A stretch of 52,485 nt of DNA, taken from positions 1 through 52,485 of IMG/VR virus record IMGVR_UViG_3300033145_000528; one strand, given 5' to 3'. Source of the DNA: a virus (taxonomy: Duplodnaviria; Caudoviricetes). The notes beneath the pieces were generated by a model. The model did not search any database. It saw only the letters and a list, made by a program, of their open reading frames with translations, and was not told the DNA's origin. Made by a program: the position numbers and the translations under genes. The number at the start of each line of letters is the position of its first letter. The first letter of the stretch is position 1. Positions 1-52,316 of this stretch are shown here, one piece after another.

Positions 1-114
1 ATTATTGAGGGGTATATAGAAAATGAAGAAACGTGGAAAGCTATGCGTCAAACTCGGGGCTTTGTAACAATACTATTGAAGGTACTTTCTGAACTCGAGA
101 TGTGTCATGAAGTT
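1..114. repeat. Terminal direct repeat, copy 1 (assembly overlap indicating a circular or terminally redundant genome)
   Basis: Bases 1-114 are identical to 52372-52485, and an ORF starting at 52309 reads through the junction to a stop at 127-129. Confidence 0.95.
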
Positions 115-132
115 GAACTCAAGGGATGATGA

Positions 133-390
133 ATGATGAAAACAACAGTAGTCCATTGTAAGAAAGCTCCTTTTGATATCTACATTGGGCGTCCATCAAA
201 ATGGGGAAATCCATTTATTATAGGCAAGGATGGGACAAGGGAGGAGGTGATTGAGAAATATTTAGAATACATTTTGGGGAATGATAAGCTTATGGCAGCG
301 TTACCAGAACTAAAAGGGAAAAGGCTTGGATGCTGGTGTAAACCGCTGGCTTGTCATGGAGATGTGCTGGCAGAATTATGTGAAATGTAA
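133..390 (+). CDS. DUF4326 family protein
   Basis: VVHCKK..DIYIGRPSKWGNPF..G.REEVI.KY..LKGKRLGCWCKP.ACHGDVL signature. Confidence 0.9.
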   Translation: MMKTTVVHCKKAPFDIYIGRPSKWGNPFIIGKDGTREEVIEKYLEYILGNDKLMAALPELKGKRLGCWCKPLACHGDVLAELCEM

Positions 391-1637
391 TGTGGAGGAT
401 ACGAGGAATTATGAGAATAGTAGCTATTGACACCGAGACAATACGAGGGGGTGAGCCGTGGAGTGTGCAGATGGCGGATATGGGGCTGAGAAATACTGCA
501 CGTATGTATTACTGTGACATACCACAGGAAATGTGTATAGTCAAGGGGATATTAGAGAAGAATTATGTGCTCACTGTTCTCCACAATGCCAAGTTTGACC
601 TCCGAGTGCTGTCCCAGCTTAACATCCATCCTGCTCACTACGAGTGTACCATGCAGATGGCATACCTGTTAGGCGAACCCAGCCTTAGTCTGAAAGTGTT
701 GGCTTATCGGATAGCAGGTATAGACATGCTAACCTATGAGGATGTCACACGAGAAGCCACGCAAGATAAGGCACGAGCATATTTAATGGAAGTTGTATCA
801 CGGGAATGGGACGATCCTGAACCCGTCATCAAAACAGCCAATGATGGCACAACCAAATTATCATTCCCCAAAAACATTAAGGGAAAAGTGAAAAGATTGT
901 TGGCCAAAGAGGCGAACGACCCATCCACAGACCTGTATGCCGTGTGGAAAGCTATGGATATAACAGGTGGTAGAGGCCAGGTTGAGGCCATCATGGGCAT
1001 AATGGAACGTGCGTATCTGAACGAGATTGACCCGCAGGATGCCGAGGAATACGCCAAACTTGACTCTGAGGCGACTTTAGCCATTTACCCTTACCTACAC
1101 ACCCAAATAGAACGATACGGCTTGCAAGGGGTGTTAGAACGTGATATGGATATTGTCCCAATGGTCATGGAAATGGAAGACAATGGAATAAAACTGGATA
1201 TACCTGTATTAGAGGAATTGAGGACAGACTTAGATAGGCTGGCAGCAGATACACAAGTAGACATAAACTACCTGGCAAAGGGTTATGTTAATCCCAGAAG
1301 TTCCAAGCAAGTAGCGGCATTGCTACAGGACATGGGGATATACACGGATATGGAAACAAGTACGGATGCTCACATACTCGACCAGCATAGAGAGCATACT
1401 ATTGTCAATAAGATACAGGATTACAGAGCATATACCAAATTACAGTCTACTTATGTGGATGCTCTTATCAAGAAAGCACAGGCATCATCTGATGGCAAGA
1501 TACACACGCAGTTCTCCATGACACGAACTGAGACTGGGCGTCTTGCTTCATCCAAGCCGAATTTACAGAATATACCGGTGAGGACAGAGCTTGGACGTAG
1601 AATACGACAGGCATTTGTAAGTGAAAGGGGCGAATAA
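390..1637 (+). CDS. polA: Family A DNA polymerase, N-terminal part (3'-5' exonuclease, thumb, start of palm); probable start at 411
   Basis: ExoI AIDTET, ExoII LHNAKFDL, ExoIII YAKLD, KLQSTYVD, TETGRLASSKPNLQNIP. Ends IRQAFVSERGE* just before motif A. RBS GAGGA precedes ATG 411. Confidence 0.93.
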   Translation: MWRIRGIMRIVAIDTETIRGGEPWSVQMADMGLRNTARMYYCDIPQEMCIVKGILEKNYVLTVLHNAKFDLRVLSQLNIHPAHYECTMQMAYLLGEPSLSLKVLAYRIAGIDMLTYEDVTREATQDKARAYLMEVVSREWDDPEPVIKTANDGTTKLSFPKNIKGKVKRLLAKEANDPSTDLYAVWKAMDITGGRGQVEAIMGIMERAYLNEIDPQDAEEYAKLDSEATLAIYPYLHTQIERYGLQGVLERDMDIVPMVMEMEDNGIKLDIPVLEELRTDLDRLAADTQVDINYLAKGYVNPRSSKQVAALLQDMGIYTDMETSTDAHILDQHREHTIVNKIQDYRAYTKLQSTYVDALIKKAQASSDGKIHTQFSMTRTETGRLASSKPNLQNIPVRTELGRRIRQAFVSERGE

Positions 1638-1801
1638 TGCGTAAAAAGAGACGGTCTAATCTGACCACGAAACAGATTGCTAAGATAGTATTATTGATGG
1701 AGCAGGGCGTAACACAAAGACATATAGCAGAGCGGTTTAACACGACATGTACTACTGTGCGTGATGCAATTAAGCGGAATAGGGAGATGCAACATGATTA
1801 A
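1637..1801 (+). CDS. Small helix-turn-helix protein (54 aa) between the polymerase halves
   Basis: Manual translation MRKKRRSNLTTKQIAKIVLLMEQGVTQRHIAERFNTTCTTVRDAIKR; HTH pattern; TAATG coupling to the upstream gene. Confidence 0.75.
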   Translation: MRKKRRSNLTTKQIAKIVLLMEQGVTQRHIAERFNTTCTTVRDAIKRNREMQHD

Positions 1802-1850
1802 TTGTTCCCTACTTGCCCTTGACTATTCCCAAATCGAAAGGAGAGAATAA
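1794..1850 (+). pseudogene. 18-codon stub duplicating the start of the polymerase C-terminal gene (motif A)
   Basis: MINCSLLALDYSQIERRE* versus MVDCSLLALDYSQIELR at 2208; 12 identical consecutive residues with mostly synonymous nucleotide differences. Confidence 0.9.
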
Positions 1851-2215
1851 TGTCAAGAAATTTATGTAACACGGTTTGTTATTTCTGTGGTCATGAGGTT
1901 GAATTGGTTGAAGAGCCAAGAGAAATAACAAAGGGGGATGCTGGTGTTTATTACGCAGAGTATAAGGGTATGTTAGTCGCTGACGCCAGATGCCCCATCT
2001 GTTTAGCAGAATATTTAGCATGGGTTGACGATAGCAAATGTACTGGACATACAAGAAGCACGGGAGAGTACGGTAGCTTTTTTGATTTGTCGTTTCGCTC
2101 CAGTTTTGATGATGAGCCGGACGATGATGATTTACCTCAATATGATGTACAGGTAATATATCATCGTGTTAGTAGGATAAACCAGAGAATAGGGGGTAAG
2201 GTACGGAATGGTTGA
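1850..2215 (+). CDS. Hypothetical zinc-finger protein between the polymerase halves
   Basis: CYFC and CPIC pairs; RBS AAGGAG; TAATG coupling. Confidence 0.7.
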   Translation: MSRNLCNTVCYFCGHEVELVEEPREITKGDAGVYYAEYKGMLVADARCPICLAEYLAWVDDSKCTGHTRSTGEYGSFFDLSFRSSFDDEPDDDDLPQYDVQVIYHRVSRINQRIGGKVRNG

Positions 2216-2954
2216 TTGCAGCCTACTGGCATTAGATTATTCGCAAATCGAATTGCGTGTAGCAGCCCACGAGTCCCAAGACCCGACCATGCTTGACATA
2301 TTTCGTAATGATGGCGATATGCATATGACAACTGCCTGTCGAATGTTCGGATTGCCCCCTGAAAAGATTGATGACAAGAAACATAGACGACCTGCCAAGA
2401 CCACAAATTTCGGCACAATATATTTAATAAGTGCCAAGGGGCTGTGGCAACAATTCCAGCACGAGGGGCTGACTCAATTCACCAAAAAGGACTGCCGGCA
2501 TTTTCTTGATAGTTGGCGTGGGGCATATCCAGGGTTCTTTGATTGGGTAGAAGAGGTAAGCGCGGAAGCACGCCGTACTGGTATGGTTAGGGACATGTTT
2601 GGTAGGATACGATTCATCCCAGAGGTTAATTCATCACTCAAATATGTGAGGGAAGCTGGTATACGGCAGGCTGTTAATGCACCTATACAGTCAGGAGCAG
2701 GAGGTATATTAAAAGAGGCAATGAGGCAACTACAGCCTATAGTACACCAATGGCAAACTGACTATGGTATCGTATGTCGCCTTTTGCTTCAAGTTCACGA
2801 TGAGCTTATATTTGAAGTGGAAGATGAGTGGCTGCCAACAATAGCTCCACAATTACACGATATTATGGTAAATGCGGTAAGATTGAGCGTGCCTATTAAA
2901 GTGGATGTAGAAACAGGGTACAATTGGAAAGATTTGGGGGCATATAAATTCTAA
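2208..2954 (+). CDS. polA: Family A DNA polymerase, C-terminal catalytic part (motifs A, B, C)
   Basis: Motif A DYSQIELR, motif B RRPAKTTNFGTIY, NAPIQSG, motif C LQVHDELIFE. Confidence 0.95.
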   Translation: MVDCSLLALDYSQIELRVAAHESQDPTMLDIFRNDGDMHMTTACRMFGLPPEKIDDKKHRRPAKTTNFGTIYLISAKGLWQQFQHEGLTQFTKKDCRHFLDSWRGAYPGFFDWVEEVSAEARRTGMVRDMFGRIRFIPEVNSSLKYVREAGIRQAVNAPIQSGAGGILKEAMRQLQPIVHQWQTDYGIVCRLLLQVHDELIFEVEDEWLPTIAPQLHDIMVNAVRLSVPIKVDVETGYNWKDLGAYKF

Positions 2955-2968
2955 CAAGGGAGTAATAT

Positions 2969-3805
2969 ATGGAACGCATCAATAACGTAATCGTAGTATC
3001 AGACACGCATTGTGGGTGCAGGCTCGGTTTATGCCCGCCTGTAGACATCCCACTCGATGATGGTGGTTTCTATAGAGCATCAGCCCTACAACAAAAGGTA
3101 TGGGCATGGTGGGTAGAGTTCTGGGGAGAGTGGGTCCCAACCGTAACAAGGAACGAGCCCTTTGTAGTGGTTATGAATGGGGATGCCATGGATGGTGTGC
3201 ATCATGACACCGTAACCCAGATTTCGCAGAACCTATCCGACCAGAGGCGTATTGCGAAGATGGTTCTTGAGCCAGTAGTAAAACAGTGTTCCGGCAATTT
3301 CTATCTGATACGTGGTACGGAAGCCCATGTTGGCAAATCTGGTCAGAATGAGGAAACACTCGCAGAGGAACTTGGAGCTTTGCCCGATAAGCAGGGAAAT
3401 TATGCACGGTGGGATTTATGGTTGAATGTCGGTGGGAAAGGCTTGGTGAATATACTACACCACATTGGGTCTACTGGAAGCCTTGCTTATGAGACCACAG
3501 CACTCATGAAAGAATATACTGAGGCTTGTAGTGATGCAGGCAGGTGGAATCGTGAAGCCCCTCAGATAGTAGTTAGGTCGCATCGCCATAGGTCGGCTGA
3601 AATAAGAGTGCCCATAGAAGAGGGTTATGGGATTTGTATAGTTACTCCAGGATGGCAATTAAAAACCCCCCTCGTGTGGCGTGTGCCAGGTGCACGTCTT
3701 ACCACGCCTCAATTTGGCGGTATTCTTATTCGTGCAGGCGATGAGGAACTATATACCCGTAGCAAGATATGGAGTGTTGATAGGACAGAAACGGAGGAGA
3801 TATGA
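2969..3805 (+). CDS. Calcineurin-like metallophosphoesterase
   Basis: SDTHCG, NGDAMD, GTEAH, HH and SHRH metal-binding motifs. Confidence 0.8.
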   Translation: MERINNVIVVSDTHCGCRLGLCPPVDIPLDDGGFYRASALQQKVWAWWVEFWGEWVPTVTRNEPFVVVMNGDAMDGVHHDTVTQISQNLSDQRRIAKMVLEPVVKQCSGNFYLIRGTEAHVGKSGQNEETLAEELGALPDKQGNYARWDLWLNVGGKGLVNILHHIGSTGSLAYETTALMKEYTEACSDAGRWNREAPQIVVRSHRHRSAEIRVPIEEGYGICIVTPGWQLKTPLVWRVPGARLTTPQFGGILIRAGDEELYTRSKIWSVDRTETEEI

Positions 3806-4047
3806 CAAAAATAACTCTTGATGAATTGATGGGTGAAATTGATGTTCTGATAAGTGAGGCTAAAATAAGACCGGCACCGCTTACTGAAGACCAGTATCGC
3901 TGCATAAAAGTGGCACGAGAGGCGGATAATCCAGTAACTTGGCGCCGCCTTGCACAATGGTGGAAAGACAGGGGATGGGGAGAAATACGTGTAAATACGT
4001 TAAAAAGTCGTTATTACGATTATAGAATTGGGAAAGGAGACAAATGA
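3802..4047 (+). CDS. Hypothetical protein (possible HTH)
   Basis: ATGA overlap with the upstream gene, RBS GGAG. Confidence 0.6.
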   Translation: MTKITLDELMGEIDVLISEAKIRPAPLTEDQYRCIKVAREADNPVTWRRLAQWWKDRGWGEIRVNTLKSRYYDYRIGKGDK

Positions 4048-4202
4048 CTTCTCGTGATTGGGATTTTGCAATAGGCGATTTGGGAGATCCCCTTGTCGAT
4101 ATAAAACACTGGATGTTGCCGCCGTATCCAAAGTGCTTAGTAGACGCAGGGGTATATAATACACAACACAATGGGGAGGATAAATGCCAAGATATAAATT
4201 AG
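4044..4202 (+). CDS. Hypothetical protein (52 aa)
   Basis: RBS AAGGAG, ATGA overlap; MTSRDWDFAIGDLGDPLVDIKHW... Confidence 0.45.
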   Translation: MTSRDWDFAIGDLGDPLVDIKHWMLPPYPKCLVDAGVYNTQHNGEDKCQDIN

Positions 4203-4888
4203 ACCCTAAAAGAGAACGTCAACGCCCATTCCATGCCTTCGAGGTATATCGTGATCTTGGATATGGACGCACATATAGGGCGGTAGCACGGCAGGTTGAT
4301 GCGTCCCCTGGTACTATATCTCATTGGGCAAAGGTTTACAAATGGGACGAGCGTATCAAAGAGAATGACATTATTGTGCAGCGGAAAAGGGATGCTGGGG
4401 CTATAATGCCTATTGACGATCCAGTCGCCAAGCGTCTTACAGATATAATGAACAAAATGGAGGCGATTATTGATAGTTGTTTCGTGAAAGAGCCTGGTGG
4501 TGATTTCTCGCTTAAAGATAGTCTTAAAATCACGAATGCAGAAGATTTGACCAAGATTATCGCCGAATACCGTAAATTCCTCGAAACCTACCATAAATTT
4601 GTTGCAGAATATATGCCTGATAAAAAAGGCAAAGACCGTTCTACAAAGATTGATAAACTAAACGTGTTTATGGGTGATTTGTCCCAGCAAGAGCGTATTG
4701 ATGTTATGAAGGGGATTGCAAATGAAAATGCCTCTGGAAGAAATAAGCAACCTGAGGGAAGAGTTTCGGAAGCAGATTATACAGAAGTACTTGAACGAGG
4801 GAATGAAGACAGACCTGGACGTACAGGAGTTTCTGGCAGCCCTGCAAATAGCGGTAGTAGGGACGAGGAGACTATGCGGGAATCCTGA
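4184..4888 (+). CDS. terS: Terminase small subunit (HTH)
   Basis: N-terminal AFEVYRDLG.GRTYRAVA..ISHWAKVYKWDER HTH followed by helical region; lies directly before TerL. Confidence 0.75.
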   Translation: MPRYKLDPKRERQRPFHAFEVYRDLGYGRTYRAVARQVDASPGTISHWAKVYKWDERIKENDIIVQRKRDAGAIMPIDDPVAKRLTDIMNKMEAIIDSCFVKEPGGDFSLKDSLKITNAEDLTKIIAEYRKFLETYHKFVAEYMPDKKGKDRSTKIDKLNVFMGDLSQQERIDVMKGIANENASGRNKQPEGRVSEADYTEVLERGNEDRPGRTGVSGSPANSGSRDEETMRES

Positions 4889-7262
4889 CCACGTATCACA
4901 GTTCGGGGTTGTATCCGACATACTCAGAGAAGCGGTGACATATTACGTTATATGGGCGTGCAGGTCAGGTAGTAAGACATTTCTGTTTGGCGGGCTGGAT
5001 TCGTGGGTAAAGAGTTGTAGTCGCCACCATTACGAGACCCGCTTATTAGGTGGGAGTAAGGATCAATCATTATTGTCTTACAAAGCCATGAGTAGGTTTC
5101 GTGACGAAACTGACCCGTTGAATACTCGCTTGGATGGGGATATTCTACAATCACGGGCAACATTCCTAAACAAATCGGAAGTGTCAATCCTTACTGCAAG
5201 TATGACTGCGGTACGTGGGCCACATCCTCAATCACTTAAACTTGATGAAGTAGATGAGATAGATGAGGAAGTATATGAAGCCGCCCTCTCGCAACCAATG
5301 GAAAATTTTGGTTACAAAGACTCACTGGGTATGTTTTCCACGAATCACAACGTCATGGGGCAAATGGATAAAGCGCTTGTAAACGCAAAAGAGCATGGCC
5401 ACGGTATCTACAAATACTGCATTTGGGAGGTCATGGCATCGTGCAGGGATTATAACTGCTCTACGTGTCCCCTTTCCGGGATATGTCCTGGCAAGCAAAT
5501 GAAAGAAGCGGATGGTTATTATTCTGTGGGGGCGTTTATTAAGAAACTCGAAACACTCTCCTATTCCATGTTGGCACGGGATTGGTTATGTATAAAAGTA
5601 GGTCTCGGGGACACGGTGTATGAGCAGGAATGGGATGAGGATACAAATCTATGTAGCGTAGCATTGCAACAAGCCCCTGTGATATTGAGTGTTGACTTTG
5701 GTGGTGTATCGCCGTTTTCTGTAGGTGTATGGCAGGAAGCACCAGATAGACTTGGCGGAAAAGGTACGTGGATACGGGTTACCGAATTGTATATGTGTTC
5801 TGAAGGGACGTATGAAGGGTCTGATAAAAAGAAGGAAACATCTGTTACCAATGCCCAGGTCATCGCACGTGCATTAAAAGCCCCCTGGGCTAAATTAGTA
5901 ACCGAAATAATACCCGACAATTCACGTCCAGACAGCATTCAAGAGTGGAGAGAGGCATTTCCACATGCTAAAATGACTATTGTGAAAAAAGATATAGATG
6001 GCATGATAGACCGTGTTAAATCGGCTCTGAAGCCTATTACTGGCACGCCTAAGATGTTGATTAATCGTATCTGTATGCACTGGCGGCAAGAGGTGCTGAT
6101 GTATGCTGTAAAGAATGATAAGCCAGTAGATAAAAACAATCACTGTTATGACGATCAAACTGAGATACTAACTGAATATGGGTGGAAACTATTTAAGGAT
6201 TTGGATAGGCAGGAAAGGGTAGCGTCCCTTGACAATGAGCGCAATCTTATATGGGCGGAGCCATCGGAGTATGTTGATTATGATTATAATGGTGATATGC
6301 TCGAATATTCTAATCGGCATTTCGGATTCTGTGTAACACCTAATCATAATATGCTTGTCGTATCACAATTCGATGCAAAGAAAACTAAGCAGTATAATCC
6401 ACGATTTGTACCTATTGAGGATATTGGGAATGCGGTGGGAAAAGAGAATAAGGGTAAGCGTAATAGAGCCTCGGTATGGTGGATACCTATGGTATGTAAT
6501 CCCCCTGAAGTTAAAGCCGAAAAGCTGATTGATGGGTATTTTCTCGGATTCTGGTTGGCAGAGGGATGTAAGTCTATTAGCGGTTTTGGGGCTAAATATG
6601 TCCATATTGACAACACTAATATACAATTCTTAGAAAAGGCTACTGCTTCTGTAGGGCATTCTCAGAAACCATACAGGACGGATTCGGGCTGTTATAGGGT
6701 GAGCATTCGTAGTGATGAGTTGTATGATATGCTTCCGAAACAGCGTAGTTGGGAAAAGCGGATTCCAAGATGGTTCATGGAAAACGCATCCACAGCGCAG
6801 TTAAAGCGATTGTATCTTGGTATGATGGATGGGGATGGATGTTGGCAGAGTGCGAGTAGCCACTATAATACTTGTAGTTACGGGTTAGCATCTGACTTTC
6901 AGGAACTTCTAATTAGAATTGGTTTGTATGGAACACTCAGAAAAATAGGTGATGCTGGTACTATAAGTTATATAAGGGGAAGAAAAGTAATATCGAAGCA
7001 TCCGCAATATAGGGTAATTATAAATATCAATAACTCAATCTACAAAGCTATACGTGGTGAGAAACTTAAACGGATTAAGTACTCTGGGAAAATCTATTGT
7101 GTAGTTGTAGAGCCATATCATACTATCATGGTGAGGCGTAATGGTAGTACGATGTGGTGCGGGCAGACAATGGATGAGACTGGTTATTTTGCACTGGCTA
7201 AGTTAGGTGAGGAAGAGGGTGTGTATGTTGGGACTACTAAACATGATGTTATGCCAAGATAG
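4722..7262 (+). CDS. terL: Terminase large subunit containing an intein
   Basis: Walker A-like ACRSGSKT, Walker B LKLDEVDE, nuclease SVDFG and DKNNH|TMD; located between TerS and portal. RBS AAGGGG precedes ATG 4722. Confidence 0.88.
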   Translation: MKMPLEEISNLREEFRKQIIQKYLNEGMKTDLDVQEFLAALQIAVVGTRRLCGNPDHVSQFGVVSDILREAVTYYVIWACRSGSKTFLFGGLDSWVKSCSRHHYETRLLGGSKDQSLLSYKAMSRFRDETDPLNTRLDGDILQSRATFLNKSEVSILTASMTAVRGPHPQSLKLDEVDEIDEEVYEAALSQPMENFGYKDSLGMFSTNHNVMGQMDKALVNAKEHGHGIYKYCIWEVMASCRDYNCSTCPLSGICPGKQMKEADGYYSVGAFIKKLETLSYSMLARDWLCIKVGLGDTVYEQEWDEDTNLCSVALQQAPVILSVDFGGVSPFSVGVWQEAPDRLGGKGTWIRVTELYMCSEGTYEGSDKKKETSVTNAQVIARALKAPWAKLVTEIIPDNSRPDSIQEWREAFPHAKMTIVKKDIDGMIDRVKSALKPITGTPKMLINRICMHWRQEVLMYAVKNDKPVDKNNHCYDDQTEILTEYGWKLFKDLDRQERVASLDNERNLIWAEPSEYVDYDYNGDMLEYSNRHFGFCVTPNHNMLVVSQFDAKKTKQYNPRFVPIEDIGNAVGKENKGKRNRASVWWIPMVCNPPEVKAEKLIDGYFLGFWLAEGCKSISGFGAKYVHIDNTNIQFLEKATASVGHSQKPYRTDSGCYRVSIRSDELYDMLPKQRSWEKRIPRWFMENASTAQLKRLYLGMMDGDGCWQSASSHYNTCSYGLASDFQELLIRIGLYGTLRKIGDAGTISYIRGRKVISKHPQYRVIININNSIYKAIRGEKLKRIKYSGKIYCVVVEPYHTIMVRRNGSTMWCGQTMDETGYFALAKLGEEEGVYVGTTKHDVMPR
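6144..7166 (+). mobile_element. Intein (341 aa) with LAGLIDADG homing endonuclease in TerL
   Basis: Begins CYDDQTEILTEYGWK; block B VTPNHNM; LAGLIDADG-like FLGFWLAEG and YLGMMDGDG; ends YCVVVEPYHTIMVRRNG..WCGQ before a Thr. Confidence 0.92.
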
Positions 7263-41175: not shown

Positions 41176-41466
41176 ACTGCTTATACCATAAGCCGTCCGC
41201 CCGATACTATGCAGCATAATTTTTAAGCGGGTAAGCAGCCCCACAGGACACAATAAACGGTAAAGGTATAATAACATATTAGTCGACAATTAAAACGTGC
41301 TGTATGCCCGTTTACTGCAATCCTCGTCAATATCAGGAATTTACTATGTGATATGGGGCTGGTTGTAGGGATGTAGTAATATGGCGATATAGTGATGTAG
41401 TAAACATACTAATATTGCAGTGTGCTAATGTATGGACTAAACAACTGATGTATTCGGGTTGAAATA

Positions 41467-41653
41467 GCGTCTTCAAATGGGGTATGCCAGATGGCGTCTT
41501 CAAATGGCCGTTTTCAAATGGAAATTTCAAAACACCGTCTTCAAATGGGTCTTTTCAAATGGGGACTTTAGAATTGTGTTGCATTTTGCAACATGTGGGT
41601 TTCAAATGGGAAATTGCGTCTTCAAATGAAGTATGTTATAGGGGTTTCAAATG
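41467..41653 (+). repeat. Cluster of eight TTCAAATG direct repeats
   Basis: Copies at 41472, 41499, 41513, 41540, 41554, 41601, 41621 and 41646, plus a variant at 41526. Confidence 0.9.
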
Positions 41654-41683
41654 TTGATGGTCAAGGGAATTAGGGCATAATTG

Positions 41684-44977: not shown

Positions 44978-45316
44978 ATGGCATCAAGAAAAACAAACTT
45001 TACTGTATATGTGGATAAAGAACTTATGACAAAGCCAAGTGAGCTTGTCGATGCGGTATTGGCTCATATGATAAAAAAGGATCTGGATATCAAAAAAAGG
45101 AAACAGTTCTTGGTGGGCTTCATGCGTATCACCGATGACAAAGCTCAACTTGAGTTTATCAATGAGTGGGTGTTGGTGAGAGACGTAGCAACTTTTCCAT
45201 TCAGGTATAATAAGAAAGCAGGGGCAAAAACGGATGAGAATACGGAAGTTGAAGGAGGAGTTCCCGTGGACAACGGAACAGACGGAGAAAAGGAGTCCGG
45301 GACTTCATCTGAGTGA
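44978..45316 (+). CDS. Hypothetical protein
   Basis: RBS GGGAG; 112-aa ORF. Confidence 0.6.
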   Translation: MASRKTNFTVYVDKELMTKPSELVDAVLAHMIKKDLDIKKRKQFLVGFMRITDDKAQLEFINEWVLVRDVATFPFRYNKKAGAKTDENTEVEGGVPVDNGTDGEKESGTSSE

Positions 45317-45800
45317 TGTGATCCACGACATGGATAAGGAATTACTCAAGACTGGTGATAAGGAAATTGATGGGGCTACTAAGATGCAGTTCGAGAAGGG
45401 GTATTTGTGGGAAGTGGCATTGTCAAGGGCGTTTGCGGAAAAAGAAGTACCTATTTATAGGGTTCCTGAAATCAAATTGGATGGGATAGCAATGAGTCCT
45501 GATGGGGTACAAACAATTTTTGACTATTCGCATGAGAAGGTAGTCGAGGAGTATAAATGTACTTCCGCATCTTCGAGTAAGTCCCCAGCCGATAATTGGA
45601 AGTGGATTATGCAGGTGAAAGGGTATTGTAAGGCAGTCGGAGCGCTCAAATGTATTTTCCGTGTTTTCCATATTAGGGATTTCGTACCTGTGTATAACGT
45701 ATGGGAATTAGTGTTTACGCAAGCAGAATTGGATGAGAATTGGGAGGCAATATTAAATCATGCTAAAACAATGGAGAAGGGAATGGGGCATACATTGTGA
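45234..45800 (+). CDS. Cas4-like PD-(D/E)XK exonuclease
   Basis: GLHLS, G..WE, SPDG, EEYKCT, W..Q...YC. Confidence 0.8.
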   Translation: MRIRKLKEEFPWTTEQTEKRSPGLHLSDVIHDMDKELLKTGDKEIDGATKMQFEKGYLWEVALSRAFAEKEVPIYRVPEIKLDGIAMSPDGVQTIFDYSHEKVVEEYKCTSASSSKSPADNWKWIMQVKGYCKAVGALKCIFRVFHIRDFVPVYNVWELVFTQAELDENWEAILNHAKTMEKGMGHTL

Positions 45801-46053: not shown

Positions 46054-46109
46054 TCTCCGCCAAAAAGGCGGTATTGAATCATGCTAAAACAATGAAAGGG
46101 GAATAAGCT

Positions 46110-50694: not shown

Positions 50695-50712
50695 ATAAAT
50701 TAAGGAGAAATT

Positions 50713-50934
50713 ATGAAACTTAATGAAATGACGATTGAGAAATTGCTTGAAGTTGTGGAAATGTGCCAATATGAGCCGCAAGGAACTTTAGCTAAGCAAC
50801 AAATTCTATCCAGATTTCACGAACAGCAGGAAGAATTGATTCTAAATTTAACAAGCTGCATACCCCCCAAACTAAAAAGGAAAACGGTTGAAAAGATGAT
50901 TGAATATTATAAAAGGAGCAATCATGAAACTTAA
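50713..50934 (+). CDS. Hypothetical protein
   Basis: RBS AAGGAG. Confidence 0.55.
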   Translation: MKLNEMTIEKLLEVVEMCQYEPQGTLAKQQILSRFHEQQEELILNLTSCIPPKLKRKTVEKMIEYYKRSNHET

Positions 50935-51061
50935 AATAATCACCATCTTGTTAATCCTCATATCGTCCGCAATTGTGATTTGGACTGGTTGGTTTGTGAT
51001 TAAAAAAGCAAACGACATATTCTGGCGACAATACTGGGAGGAGTATAGACCAAATGGATAA
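50924..51061 (+). CDS. Small membrane protein (45 aa)
   Basis: MKLKIITILLILISSAIVIWTGWF; RBS AAGGAG. Confidence 0.55.
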   Translation: MKLKIITILLILISSAIVIWTGWFVIKKANDIFWRQYWEEYRPNG

Positions 51062-51422: not shown

Positions 51423-51492
51423 TGATTAGGAGTGTGTTTAAGAGAAGCTGCTCCAAGAACCGAAAGATTTAATGAAAATGGGGGGAGGCATT

Positions 51493-52071
51493 ATGAGACC
51501 TTGCAAAGAACATGACGAAGTTGGTTGCCCCATGACCCGTATCAATCGTGTAAATGGTGAGGGACCGATACCGTGCCATATTATGCTTATTGGGGAAGCG
51601 CCTGGCAAGAATGAGGATAAGAAAGGGAAGCCGTTTGTTGGGAAGTCTGGTAGCGAACTTACGCATCTGTATCTTGGCAGATGTGCGAGAATTAATAGGA
51701 GCAATGTATTCATCACTAATCTCGTGCGCTGTAGAACAAATGACAAGGATAGAGACCCTACGGAGAAAGAAATTAAAGCGTGTAGCCAATTGTTACTTGC
51801 TGAGTTGGCAACTATAAAGCCACGTTTTATTGGACTGATAGGACGCATATCAACTCGATGGATGTTGGGCAATGATATACGAATGGAAAAGGTACACGGA
51901 TTTGGCTATAGTAATCTCATTTTTCCTTATTGCGATGCTCTTGTCATGCCCCTCTACCATCCAGCCTATGGTCTGCACAATACGGCTATGATGAGGCATA
52001 TTATGGAAGATTGGACGAGGTTTGGGAAGATGGTTAGGGGGGACAAGAGTGTAATATGGAAACCAAAGTAG
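51493..52071 (+). CDS. Uracil-DNA glycosylase, family 4
   Basis: V.GEG, MLIGEAPG.NED..G.PFVG.SG, FITN.VRCR...RDP...EI.AC, LYHPAY. Confidence 0.92.
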   Translation: MRPCKEHDEVGCPMTRINRVNGEGPIPCHIMLIGEAPGKNEDKKGKPFVGKSGSELTHLYLGRCARINRSNVFITNLVRCRTNDKDRDPTEKEIKACSQLLLAELATIKPRFIGLIGRISTRWMLGNDIRMEKVHGFGYSNLIFPYCDALVMPLYHPAYGLHNTAMMRHIMEDWTRFGKMVRGDKSVIWKPK

Positions 52072-52115
52072 TACATTGTAAGAAAGAACTCTCAGAAAAT
52101 AAATATGTTTTATGA
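52056..52115 (+). pseudogene. Stub duplicating the 5' end of the DUF4326 gene
   Basis: METKVVHCKKELSENKYVL* versus MKTTVVHCKKAPF at 136. Confidence 0.8.
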
Positions 52116-52124
52116 AAGGAGTGA

Positions 52125-52316
52125 ATGATGAATACTGAAGCAGATTTATTAAATGCAATTAAAGAAATTCATTATGAACTGGCAGCATTACTTCCTGATC
52201 CATCTAATCCAGATTGGATGTCATTATTAACAAATGGTAATTCTGCTGATGCAAAGTGTTTACAAAATGTTTGGGATATTACAGAGAATATTTTGAAAGG
52301 GATGGATGATGATTAA
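52125..52316 (+). CDS. Hypothetical protein
   Basis: RBS AAGGAG. Confidence 0.55.
   Translation: MMNTEADLLNAIKEIHYELAALLPDPSNPDWMSLLTNGNSADAKCLQNVWDITENILKGMDDD

Follow-up and report, generated by a model that had tools for sequence, protein, structure and literature searches.

The window, by which we mean the whole stretch of 52,485 bp that was analysed (virus record IMGVR_UViG_3300033145_000528), is a complete phage record with direct terminal repeats of exactly 114 nucleotides (nt). It carries a DNA polymerase gene of the PolA type in two separate pieces, an N-half and a C-half, with other open reading frames (ORFs) in the gap between them. The order of the locus, all on the + strand, is PolA N-half, helix-turn-helix (HTH) gene, stub ORF, Zn-ribbon gene and PolA C-half, with the following features.

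411..1637, + strand: PolA N-half (3'-5' exonuclease and first part of the polymerase domain), ending ..RQAFVSERGE and a stop; alternative ATG at 390.
1623..1639, + strand: boundary 17-mer copy 1, GAAAGGGGCGAATAATG, comprising the ERGE codons (the last four of the N-half), the stop TAA and the overlapping ATG of the HTH gene.
1637..1801, + strand: passenger 1, a 54-amino-acid (aa) HTH protein (Pfam HTH_28, HTH_7).
1794..1850, + strand: stub ORF of 18 codons, MINCSLLALDYSQIERRE and a stop, consisting of a copy of the C-half head (1794-1838, MIN-CSLLALDYSQIE) in frame with a mini-stub of the N-half tail (RRE and a stop).
1836..1852, + strand: boundary 17-mer copy 2, GAAAGGAGAGAATAATG, comprising AGGAG, the stop of the stub and the overlapping ATG of the Zn-ribbon gene.
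1850..2215, + strand: passenger 2, the Zn-ribbon gene, 121 aa, with four conserved Cys (C10, C13, C48, C51).
2208..2954, + strand: PolA C-half, starting MVDCSLLALDYSQIELR.., with motif A DYSQIELR, motif B RRPAKTTNFGTIY and motif C QVHDE.

The four junctions are, in order, TAATG, an 8-nt overlap, TAATG and an 8-nt overlap, every overlap being 1 or 8 nt. The stop of the HTH gene shares 8 nt with the ATG of the stub (1794-1801), and the stop of the Zn-ribbon gene shares 8 nt with the ATG of the C-half (2208-2215, ATGGTTGA). A preliminary description of this DNA, made from its letters, had pointed to both 8-nt overlaps and to the two 17-mers at 1623-1639 and 1836-1852 with 15/17 identity, and all of these were found as described; copy 1 contains AGGGG, a possible Shine-Dalgarno site. 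Its proposal that GAATAGGG forms a shared right boundary of the two cassettes did not hold. This sequence lies 9 nt before the ATG in one cassette (1777-1784) and 13 nt before it in the other (2187-2194), in different frames, and in the Zn-ribbon gene it is conserved C-terminal coding sequence of that family (..INQRIGG..). The right-side homology of the two cassettes begins at the ATG.

The two halves together make up a polymerase of family A (Pol I type). The N-half matched PF01612 (DNA_pol_A_exo1, 3.8e-14) and PF00476 (DNA_pol_A, 1e-35, profile positions 3-149 of 381), and the C-half matched PF00476 (8.9e-66, positions 152-381 of 381), so that positions 3-381 are covered. Compared with the related locus L001, the N-half is 69% and the C-half 86% identical in aa sequence.

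Scans of viral and metagenome contigs yielded 17 further split loci (L001, L003, L004, L006-L011, L013, L015-L017, L021-L024); L005 and L020 were dropped, since they lie on the same contig as L001. Both halves were on the contig in nine relatives, which gave, together with the window, 10 fully visible gaps. All 17 relatives are cut at the same G|C point. No cultured phage is closely related: a nucleotide search with the whole polymerase locus gave no match among 50,697 phage records, tblastn of the two PolA halves against named phages gave nothing above 40% aa identity across most of the query, and a scan of bacterial and archaeal genomes with two peptide patterns found no relative.

In the window, the cut point is ..AFVSERG|CSLLALDYSQIE.., and the uncut close relative L012 reads through it as ..VREAFVAEEG-CSLLALDYSQIELR... 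HMMER aligned this stretch of L012 with ..RRAFIAEEG-WLLVALDYSQIELR.. of Taq Pol I (E 3e-34), which places the cut six residues before the catalytic Asp of motif A. In the AlphaFold2 (AF2) model of L012, whose mean predicted local distance difference test score (pLDDT) was 87, with blocks 391-410 at 90-93, a turn at 399-402 ends at the cut (G402|C403) and the motif-A strand spans 403-409. Judging from this model, it is plausible that a break is tolerated at this surface turn between two strands, and the two halves presumably assemble into an enzyme without being joined. Both halves have their own start and stop in all 10 loci where both are visible. The N-half ends there with ..SER[GS].., followed by one or two residues and the stop, which overlaps the next start by 1 or 4 nt in 10/10; the C-half begins with M/V-x-x-CSLL, its ATG or GTG standing three residues before the Cys, and a purine-rich stretch precedes this start in the same loci.

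A similar start was frequent in a wider protein database. Among the 50 best C-half-sized proteins, 34 start no more than 12 residues before DYSQIE, including some at only 44-64% identity and some encoded on 52-57 kb contigs (P0047, P0056, P0065, P0067). Of the others, eight have their start 13-30 residues upstream of the motif, mostly through gene calls that were extended, the motif is missing from four, and the remaining four are longer. Three C-terminal polymerase proteins of 293-295 aa (P0081, P0082, P0085; 59-60% identical to the window C-half) start with MNRLHTD..., about 45 residues upstream of the cut studied here, and from these sequences related polymerases may hold a second split point. 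Bacillus phage Mgbh1 was considered as a split form, and its polymerase is uncut. The more distant polymerases L026-L032 and L034 are also uncut, and the likewise more distant L025 and L033 carry an intein-like insertion (near 3000) at DY|SQIE, which in L025 is preceded by a Mom-family gene.

The preliminary description had regarded the gap as a conserved exchange slot and had suggested that the genes between the two halves be tabulated across relatives. The tabulation agrees with this view: the cut is the same in the 17 relatives, and gap lengths and contents differ. The 10 complete gaps, window included, are 221, 232, 250, 282, 319, 355, 458, 573, 900 and 922 nt long, and two partial gaps run off the contig end after more than 1,215 nt (L011) and more than 1,424 nt (L013). 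Up to five small ORFs stand in a row there. When 42 candidate ORFs from the gaps were compared all against all, they fell into 26 groups, of which 19 were singletons. The largest group is the HTH family, present in 7 of 18 loci (window, L004, L007, L009, L015, L021, L022); the window Zn-ribbon gene is a singleton among the compared gaps. In L004, L015 and L021, the HTH alleles are 94-97% identical in aa sequence and the downstream neighbour ORFs are different, a pattern that, as far as sequences can tell, is what recent cassette exchange would leave.

The passengers appear to be portable small phage genes. The Zn-ribbon protein has at least 44 homologues, with an invariant MSRNL start and the four conserved Cys, and its homologues occurred in eight viral loci, none of which adjoins PolA. 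It gave no Pfam or PHROG match. A fold search with its AF2 model (mean pLDDT 79) gave no match in the PDB at E 0.001 or better, and in the Atlas only zinc-ribbon-like leads below that search's own bar. L001 carries, outside its gap, a homologue with 50% identity to the 120-aa passenger of L021. One passenger of L024 is weakly Lar-like, which hints at anti-defence roles.

The stub between the two passengers is a second version of the C-half head, and its divergence is informative. The head repeat (1794-1838 vs 2208-2252) is identical at 34/45 nt (76%). As the preliminary description had stated, the two copies share the 12 residues CSLLALDYSQIE and differ in 7 of the 12 codons; nine nt differ and no aa is changed. 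A degenerate back-translation of the 12 residues had no hit in the window other than these two sites and no hit at all in 100 shuffles, and 200,000 simulated trials of nine random substitutions never left the peptide unchanged. All nine differences being silent, the stub seems to have diverged while it was a working polymerase head. Over the 36 core nt, it matches the resident head at 27, a value close to that between the heads of different relatives (mean 26.7/36, range 18-36), whereas it matches L021, L003 and L006 at 31. By these values the stub looks like the head of another lineage. The claim that it is not a fresh self-duplication is thus borne out, and the idea of a second allele captured in tandem gains support from the likeness to other lineages and the silent differences, although the donor was not found. 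At the junction of the head copy and the N-tail mini-stub, only GAA is common to the two.

Such scars are not confined to the window. A motif scan of all gaps detected pieces of the N-half tail in L007, L016, L017 and L024, as well as in the partial gap of L010. Therefore, 5 of the 10 complete gaps contain a piece of a polymerase edge, which is a C-half head in the window and an N-half tail in the other four. The stub of L024 differs from the resident tail at 19 nt over 20 codons, with 13 codons but only two aa differing, and that of L017 differs at 13 nt over 19 codons, with three aa differences.

We then examined the boundary 17-mer. With up to three mismatches, it occurs at four sites in the window against 0.31 expected, and none of 100 shuffles reached four. 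When sites with up to three mismatches to the consensus GAAAGGAGTGAATGATG were counted, there were nine in 9,856 nt of gaps vs four in 109,339 nt outside (Fisher p 9e-8), a further seven sites being resident N-half tails; at internal ORF junctions in gaps, the 17-mer is thus about 25 times denser than outside gaps. Among sites of the form AGGRG-6 nt-ATG, at least seven of the nine free positions matched in 7/12 within gaps vs 1/22 outside (p 0.001), which argues that the 17-mer is more than a ribosome-binding site. The enrichment therefore suggests that cassettes tend to carry the N-half end as their left edge. Promoter-like and terminator-like sites in 1-4200 were at chance level (8 vs 8.9 expected and 3 vs 3.0 expected, respectively).

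Purifying selection acts on both polymerase halves. In the comparison of the window with L001, the N-half had a ratio of nonsynonymous to synonymous divergence (dN/dS) of 0.11 at a dS of 2.4, and the C-half one of 0.06 at a dS of 1.7; against L006, L022, L023 and L012, dS was mostly too saturated to compute. The proposal that the split is old and under selection agrees with this saturation of synonymous sites relative to split relatives and with the low dN/dS. In trees of the C-half and of both halves (N+C), the split relatives and L012 formed a clade (support 99/100) that was unresolved inside, and a tree with all split forms together was not rejected (p-AU 0.263). The split forms share ..S-E-R-[GS], while the uncut L012 (AEEG), the uncut fragment P0075 (AQEG) and Taq (AEEG) share another state; the state common to the split forms argues for a single origin of the split.

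From these results we consider it probable that the split is old and selected, and that recombination between related phages has made the gap into an array of cassettes. The preliminary description, whose observation was confirmed, had thus been largely right in what it inferred. The phage would make its family-A DNA polymerase from two genes, with accessory ORFs in the gap chained by stop/start overlaps of 1, 4 or 8 nt. Since the ORFs are chained in this way, translation could proceed from the N-half via the passengers to the C-half. The last codons of the N-half (GAAAGGRGNGAATRATG) carry a ribosome-binding site, a stop and the next ATG, and in one frame the first codons of the C-half (ATG-NNT-GAN) supply a stop to the ORF before them; a gene inserted here could therefore be expressed without signals of its own. 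Related phages would swap different cassettes by recombination in the conserved polymerase flanks, and an illegitimate crossover would add a cassette instead of replacing one, leaving behind a piece of the polymerase edge of the donor or the recipient. In this genome, an N-HTH-C lineage would have been joined, after codon 15 of its C-half and at the GAA microhomology, to an N-ZnF-C lineage at the latter's last four N-half codons, giving N-HTH-[C-head stub][N-tail mini-stub]-ZnF-C. A single illegitimate join between two related genomes is probably the simplest history of the stub; translational coupling, the recombination pathway and the roles of the passengers are likewise deduced.

Several points weigh against this account. 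No donor allele was found: the preliminary description had looked to a relative whose working C-half start would match the stub, and the best head match among relatives was 38/45 nt. A head of the type MINC.. had no match in viral contigs, and next to the gap no block with donor-like sliding-window identity was seen. The evidence for the tandem order comes from a single assembly, the contigs cover 8 of the 18 gaps only in part, and some of the listed gap ORFs may not be genes. The trees, the inside of the clade being unresolved, cannot tell whether the split arose once.

Homing endonucleases may have made the slot and may keep it in flux. This explanation concerns the origin or driver of the array and is compatible with recombination between related phages, and we consider it unlikely. 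In one version, a free-standing endonuclease gene split the polymerase gene and the HTH gene is its remnant DNA-binding domain; in another, cuts by an intein-endonuclease at the nearby DY|SQIE trigger the repair that stacks cassettes. The HTH protein invites the first version. It passed the Pfam cut-offs (HTH_28 27.3 bits, cut-off 25; HTH_7 24.0 bits, cut-off 23.8), and its best PHROG was the C-terminal part of an 'HNH endonuclease' family (phrog_20467, positions 59-102 of 112, E 2.3e-7). Its family was found only in the gap: the window and L022 have no copy outside it, L022 being the only one of four relatives' records searched that has the gene. It was absent from the 93%-complete record behind L024 and had no match in named phages. 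The second version is favoured by the insertions of L025 and L033, which lie four codons before the end point of the window stub, and by the LAGLIDADG domains of the clade, in which inteins carrying them are frequent. Against both, no nuclease domain was found in the two passengers of the window or in the 19 gap ORFs among 20 further proteins scanned. A longer, fused form of the HTH protein was looked for and did not turn up, which is weak evidence. A profile search with the HTH alignment gave 3,809 proteins, of which the best were multi-repeat HTH proteins of a generic kind and 8 of the 150 listed were small stand-alone ones of 50-59 aa; this search carries no information on a nuclease origin. 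As the present arrangement, a split by a free-standing endonuclease of the mobE or seg type is not supported, as the scanned gap ORFs include no endonuclease gene and the PHROG match of the HTH protein is the only link.

There is also a stronger reading, which we regard as quite improbable, namely that the 17-nt N-half tail is a dedicated joint. Boundary-tagged cassettes would be inserted, deleted or moved by short-homology recombination, with the HTH protein binding the joint. It would be similarly doubtful that cassettes pass through circles, as possible for the PeSLs discussed below, and that they move both within the slot and to other sites. If true, the joint would be a phage-borne, integron-like platform for gene capture inside an essential gene. 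Integrase Pfam families had no match in the ORFs adjoining the array, although a search aimed at an integrase or attC was not made.

It is very unlikely that the C-half head was duplicated within this genome, with the copy drifting and the passengers being replaced later. The layout does look as if [N-tail ... C-head] had been duplicated in tandem, at spacings of 213 nt (between the two 17-mers) and 414 nt (between the two heads). However, drift in place would hardly leave 9/9 differences silent, an outcome seen in 0/200,000 random trials; the preserved peptide means that the copy worked as a polymerase head while it diverged, which points to another genome. Moreover, the two passengers are unrelated to each other, and the stub is nearer to the heads of other lineages than to the resident head.

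We give very little credence to the contig being a chimera of two co-assembled strains, one with the HTH gene and one with the Zn-ribbon gene, even though this is a metagenomic genome and relatives with a single cassette exist. The longest exact word common to the copies is 9 nt (CAAATCGAA) and the join shares only GAA; with no longer shared word, an assembly graph has no basis for such a mis-join. Frames and stop/start overlaps are intact at 4/4 junctions, the record is rated complete with its terminal repeats, and five further contigs, taken from other assemblies, hold similar stubs.

Phage polymerase genes often contain introns and inteins. A single polymerase chain made by removal or bypass of the gap (group I intron, intein, split intein, ribosome hop) is nevertheless hardly tenable: the clade has inteins in TerL, UDG and PolA itself and a Cys follows the cut, but this Cys is present in the uncut L012 too, Rfam with permissive filters gave only three weak unrelated matches in 1200-2700 (best E 0.91), gap contents are unrelated between relatives, and intein blocks do not fit because the N-half stops one residue past the cut and the C-half begins three residues before it. 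Group I and group II introns were accordingly rejected (no significant Rfam family, unrelated gap sequences), as were an intein and a split intein, for which there is no room at either edge and whose true counterparts in the clade are recognised by Pfam elsewhere.

We compared the proposed recombining cassette array with known systems, in the passages of the published reports cited here. Split family-A polymerases with a small ORF have been described in the OM43 phages MEP401 and MEP402, as two ORFs with the small one between them (PMC10580990), and in a cyanophage lineage (bioRxiv 10.1101/325100). In BLASTP with MEP401 (record OP830906), the end of gp13 (..IKTLFLSRYGE and a stop) aligned with the N-tail of the window and the start of gp15 (MILNADAKALE..) with its C-head; therefore, MEP401 is cut at the same structural position. 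Its N-tail resembles that of the window in having GE before the stop and GGAG just before the next ATG, whereas the two C-halves are only 23% identical. MEP401 has one 77-aa ORF in this place, and its authors left the possibility of an intron open; cassette variability, stubs and boundary repeats are not reported in the passages of that paper considered, supplements aside (PMC10580990).

In T4-related Aeromonas phages, according to the parts of a review covered here, gene 43 (PolB) is split, as nrdA is by mobE in Aeh1. The split site of gene 43 holds the endonuclease gene seg43 in phage 25 and an untranslated spacer in 44RR, and the products of gene 43 of phage 25 co-purify and polymerise (PMC2988022). 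As in the window, an essential replication gene is in two pieces with different inserts in relatives. The enzyme is of family B, unlike that of the window, and what is inserted is either non-coding DNA or the gene of a homing endonuclease, whereas the loci studied here have arrays of small ORFs with copies of the gene's own edges, and no nuclease was found there. The 'fractured genes' of environmental phage-like sequences, as far as the covered text goes, are also genes in two with another gene between, associated with split inteins and a free-standing endonuclease (PMC2677866); their halves bear splicing split-intein parts, for which the halves in the window leave no room. A further report concerns a split tail gene and not a split polymerase (PMC4819975).

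The PeSLs of T4-type phages are promoter and terminator stem-loops in intergenic hyperplastic regions (PMC2839356). In the covered part of that report, repeated short expression signals flank small non-essential ORFs and recombination shuffles the modules, as we propose for the window, and PeSLs are the nearest known parallel to the way in which the array may be shuffled. In the window, by contrast, the repeat consists of a ribosome-binding site with a stop/start overlap, comes from the coding end of the N-half and lies inside an essential gene. Identity with PeSLs was rejected, as promoter- and terminator-like sites in 1-4200 are not enriched. The repeat may thus work like a PeSL without being one. 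That an essential phage gene can lie in two pieces, with an insert separating them, is known; the array, its edge-derived boundaries and the recurrent silent stubs are new. In the literature searched, supplements aside, no cassette array in a split polymerase gene tagged by the gene's own edges was described.

To our knowledge, split polymerase genes of phages usually receive one sentence and no explanation. To judge from the sequences, accessory genes would find in the gap an expression site that is already in place. As the flanks of the gap encode the active site, they cannot drift, and such conserved flanks would serve as long-lived homology arms for the swapping of small genes. The scars may record how frequent the exchange is, silently diverged polymerase edges being present in half of the visible gaps, and the gap indicates where new accessory genes of this uncultured clade may be sought. 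The turn before motif A looks like a generally tolerated fission point, because polymerases only 23% identical are also cut there; such a point in a Pol I-type enzyme would be of interest for enzyme engineering.

Other duplicated edges were noticed in the genome. A second head stub at 52056-52086 (ORF METKVVHCKKELSENKYVL and a stop) overlaps the stop of a UDG-like gene (51472..52071) and is identical at 27/31 nt to the head of a DUF4326 gene (136-166), a score reached in 0/500 shuffles. It is followed by an exact copy of the consensus GAAAGGAGTGAATGATG (52114-52130), a 63-aa ORF, a second boundary-like 17-mer (52295-52311), a 64-aa ORF running through the terminal repeat and the real DUF4326 gene; these two 17-mers are the only boundary-like sites of the genome outside the polymerase gap. 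The tail of a 188-aa ORF (45234..45800; ..ILNHAKTM.., 45745-45773) recurs 321 nt downstream at 46066-46094 (26/29 nt), after a 97-aa ORF, and a ribosome-binding site with head (ATGAAACTTAA..) is found at two successive small ORFs (50702-50735 and 50913-50946, 27/34 nt). Edge duplication beside inserted ORFs may, from these sequences, be general in this genome. In relatives, the stretch from the UDG-like gene to the PolA N-half is also variable (L006, L012, L016, L022, L023): its length ranges from 138 to about 530 nt, DUF4326 is present in some and absent from others, and in L006 a 46-aa Cys-rich ORF lies upstream of PolA.

An intein is suggested in the terminase-like ORF of the window (4716-7262, 848 aa) by a LAGLIDADG_3 domain at residues 701-756 (E 2e-7). 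In L001, the UDG gene (1799-3409) carries LAGLIDADG_2 and Intein_splicing, and the PolA C-half of L024 (3001-4749) is interrupted at NAPIQ|SGAGG by an intein. A CGTCTTCAAATGG-type repeat occurs five times at 41462-41657 in the window, its copies being spaced by 14-81 nt; this iteron-like array is possibly an origin or a cluster of binding sites.

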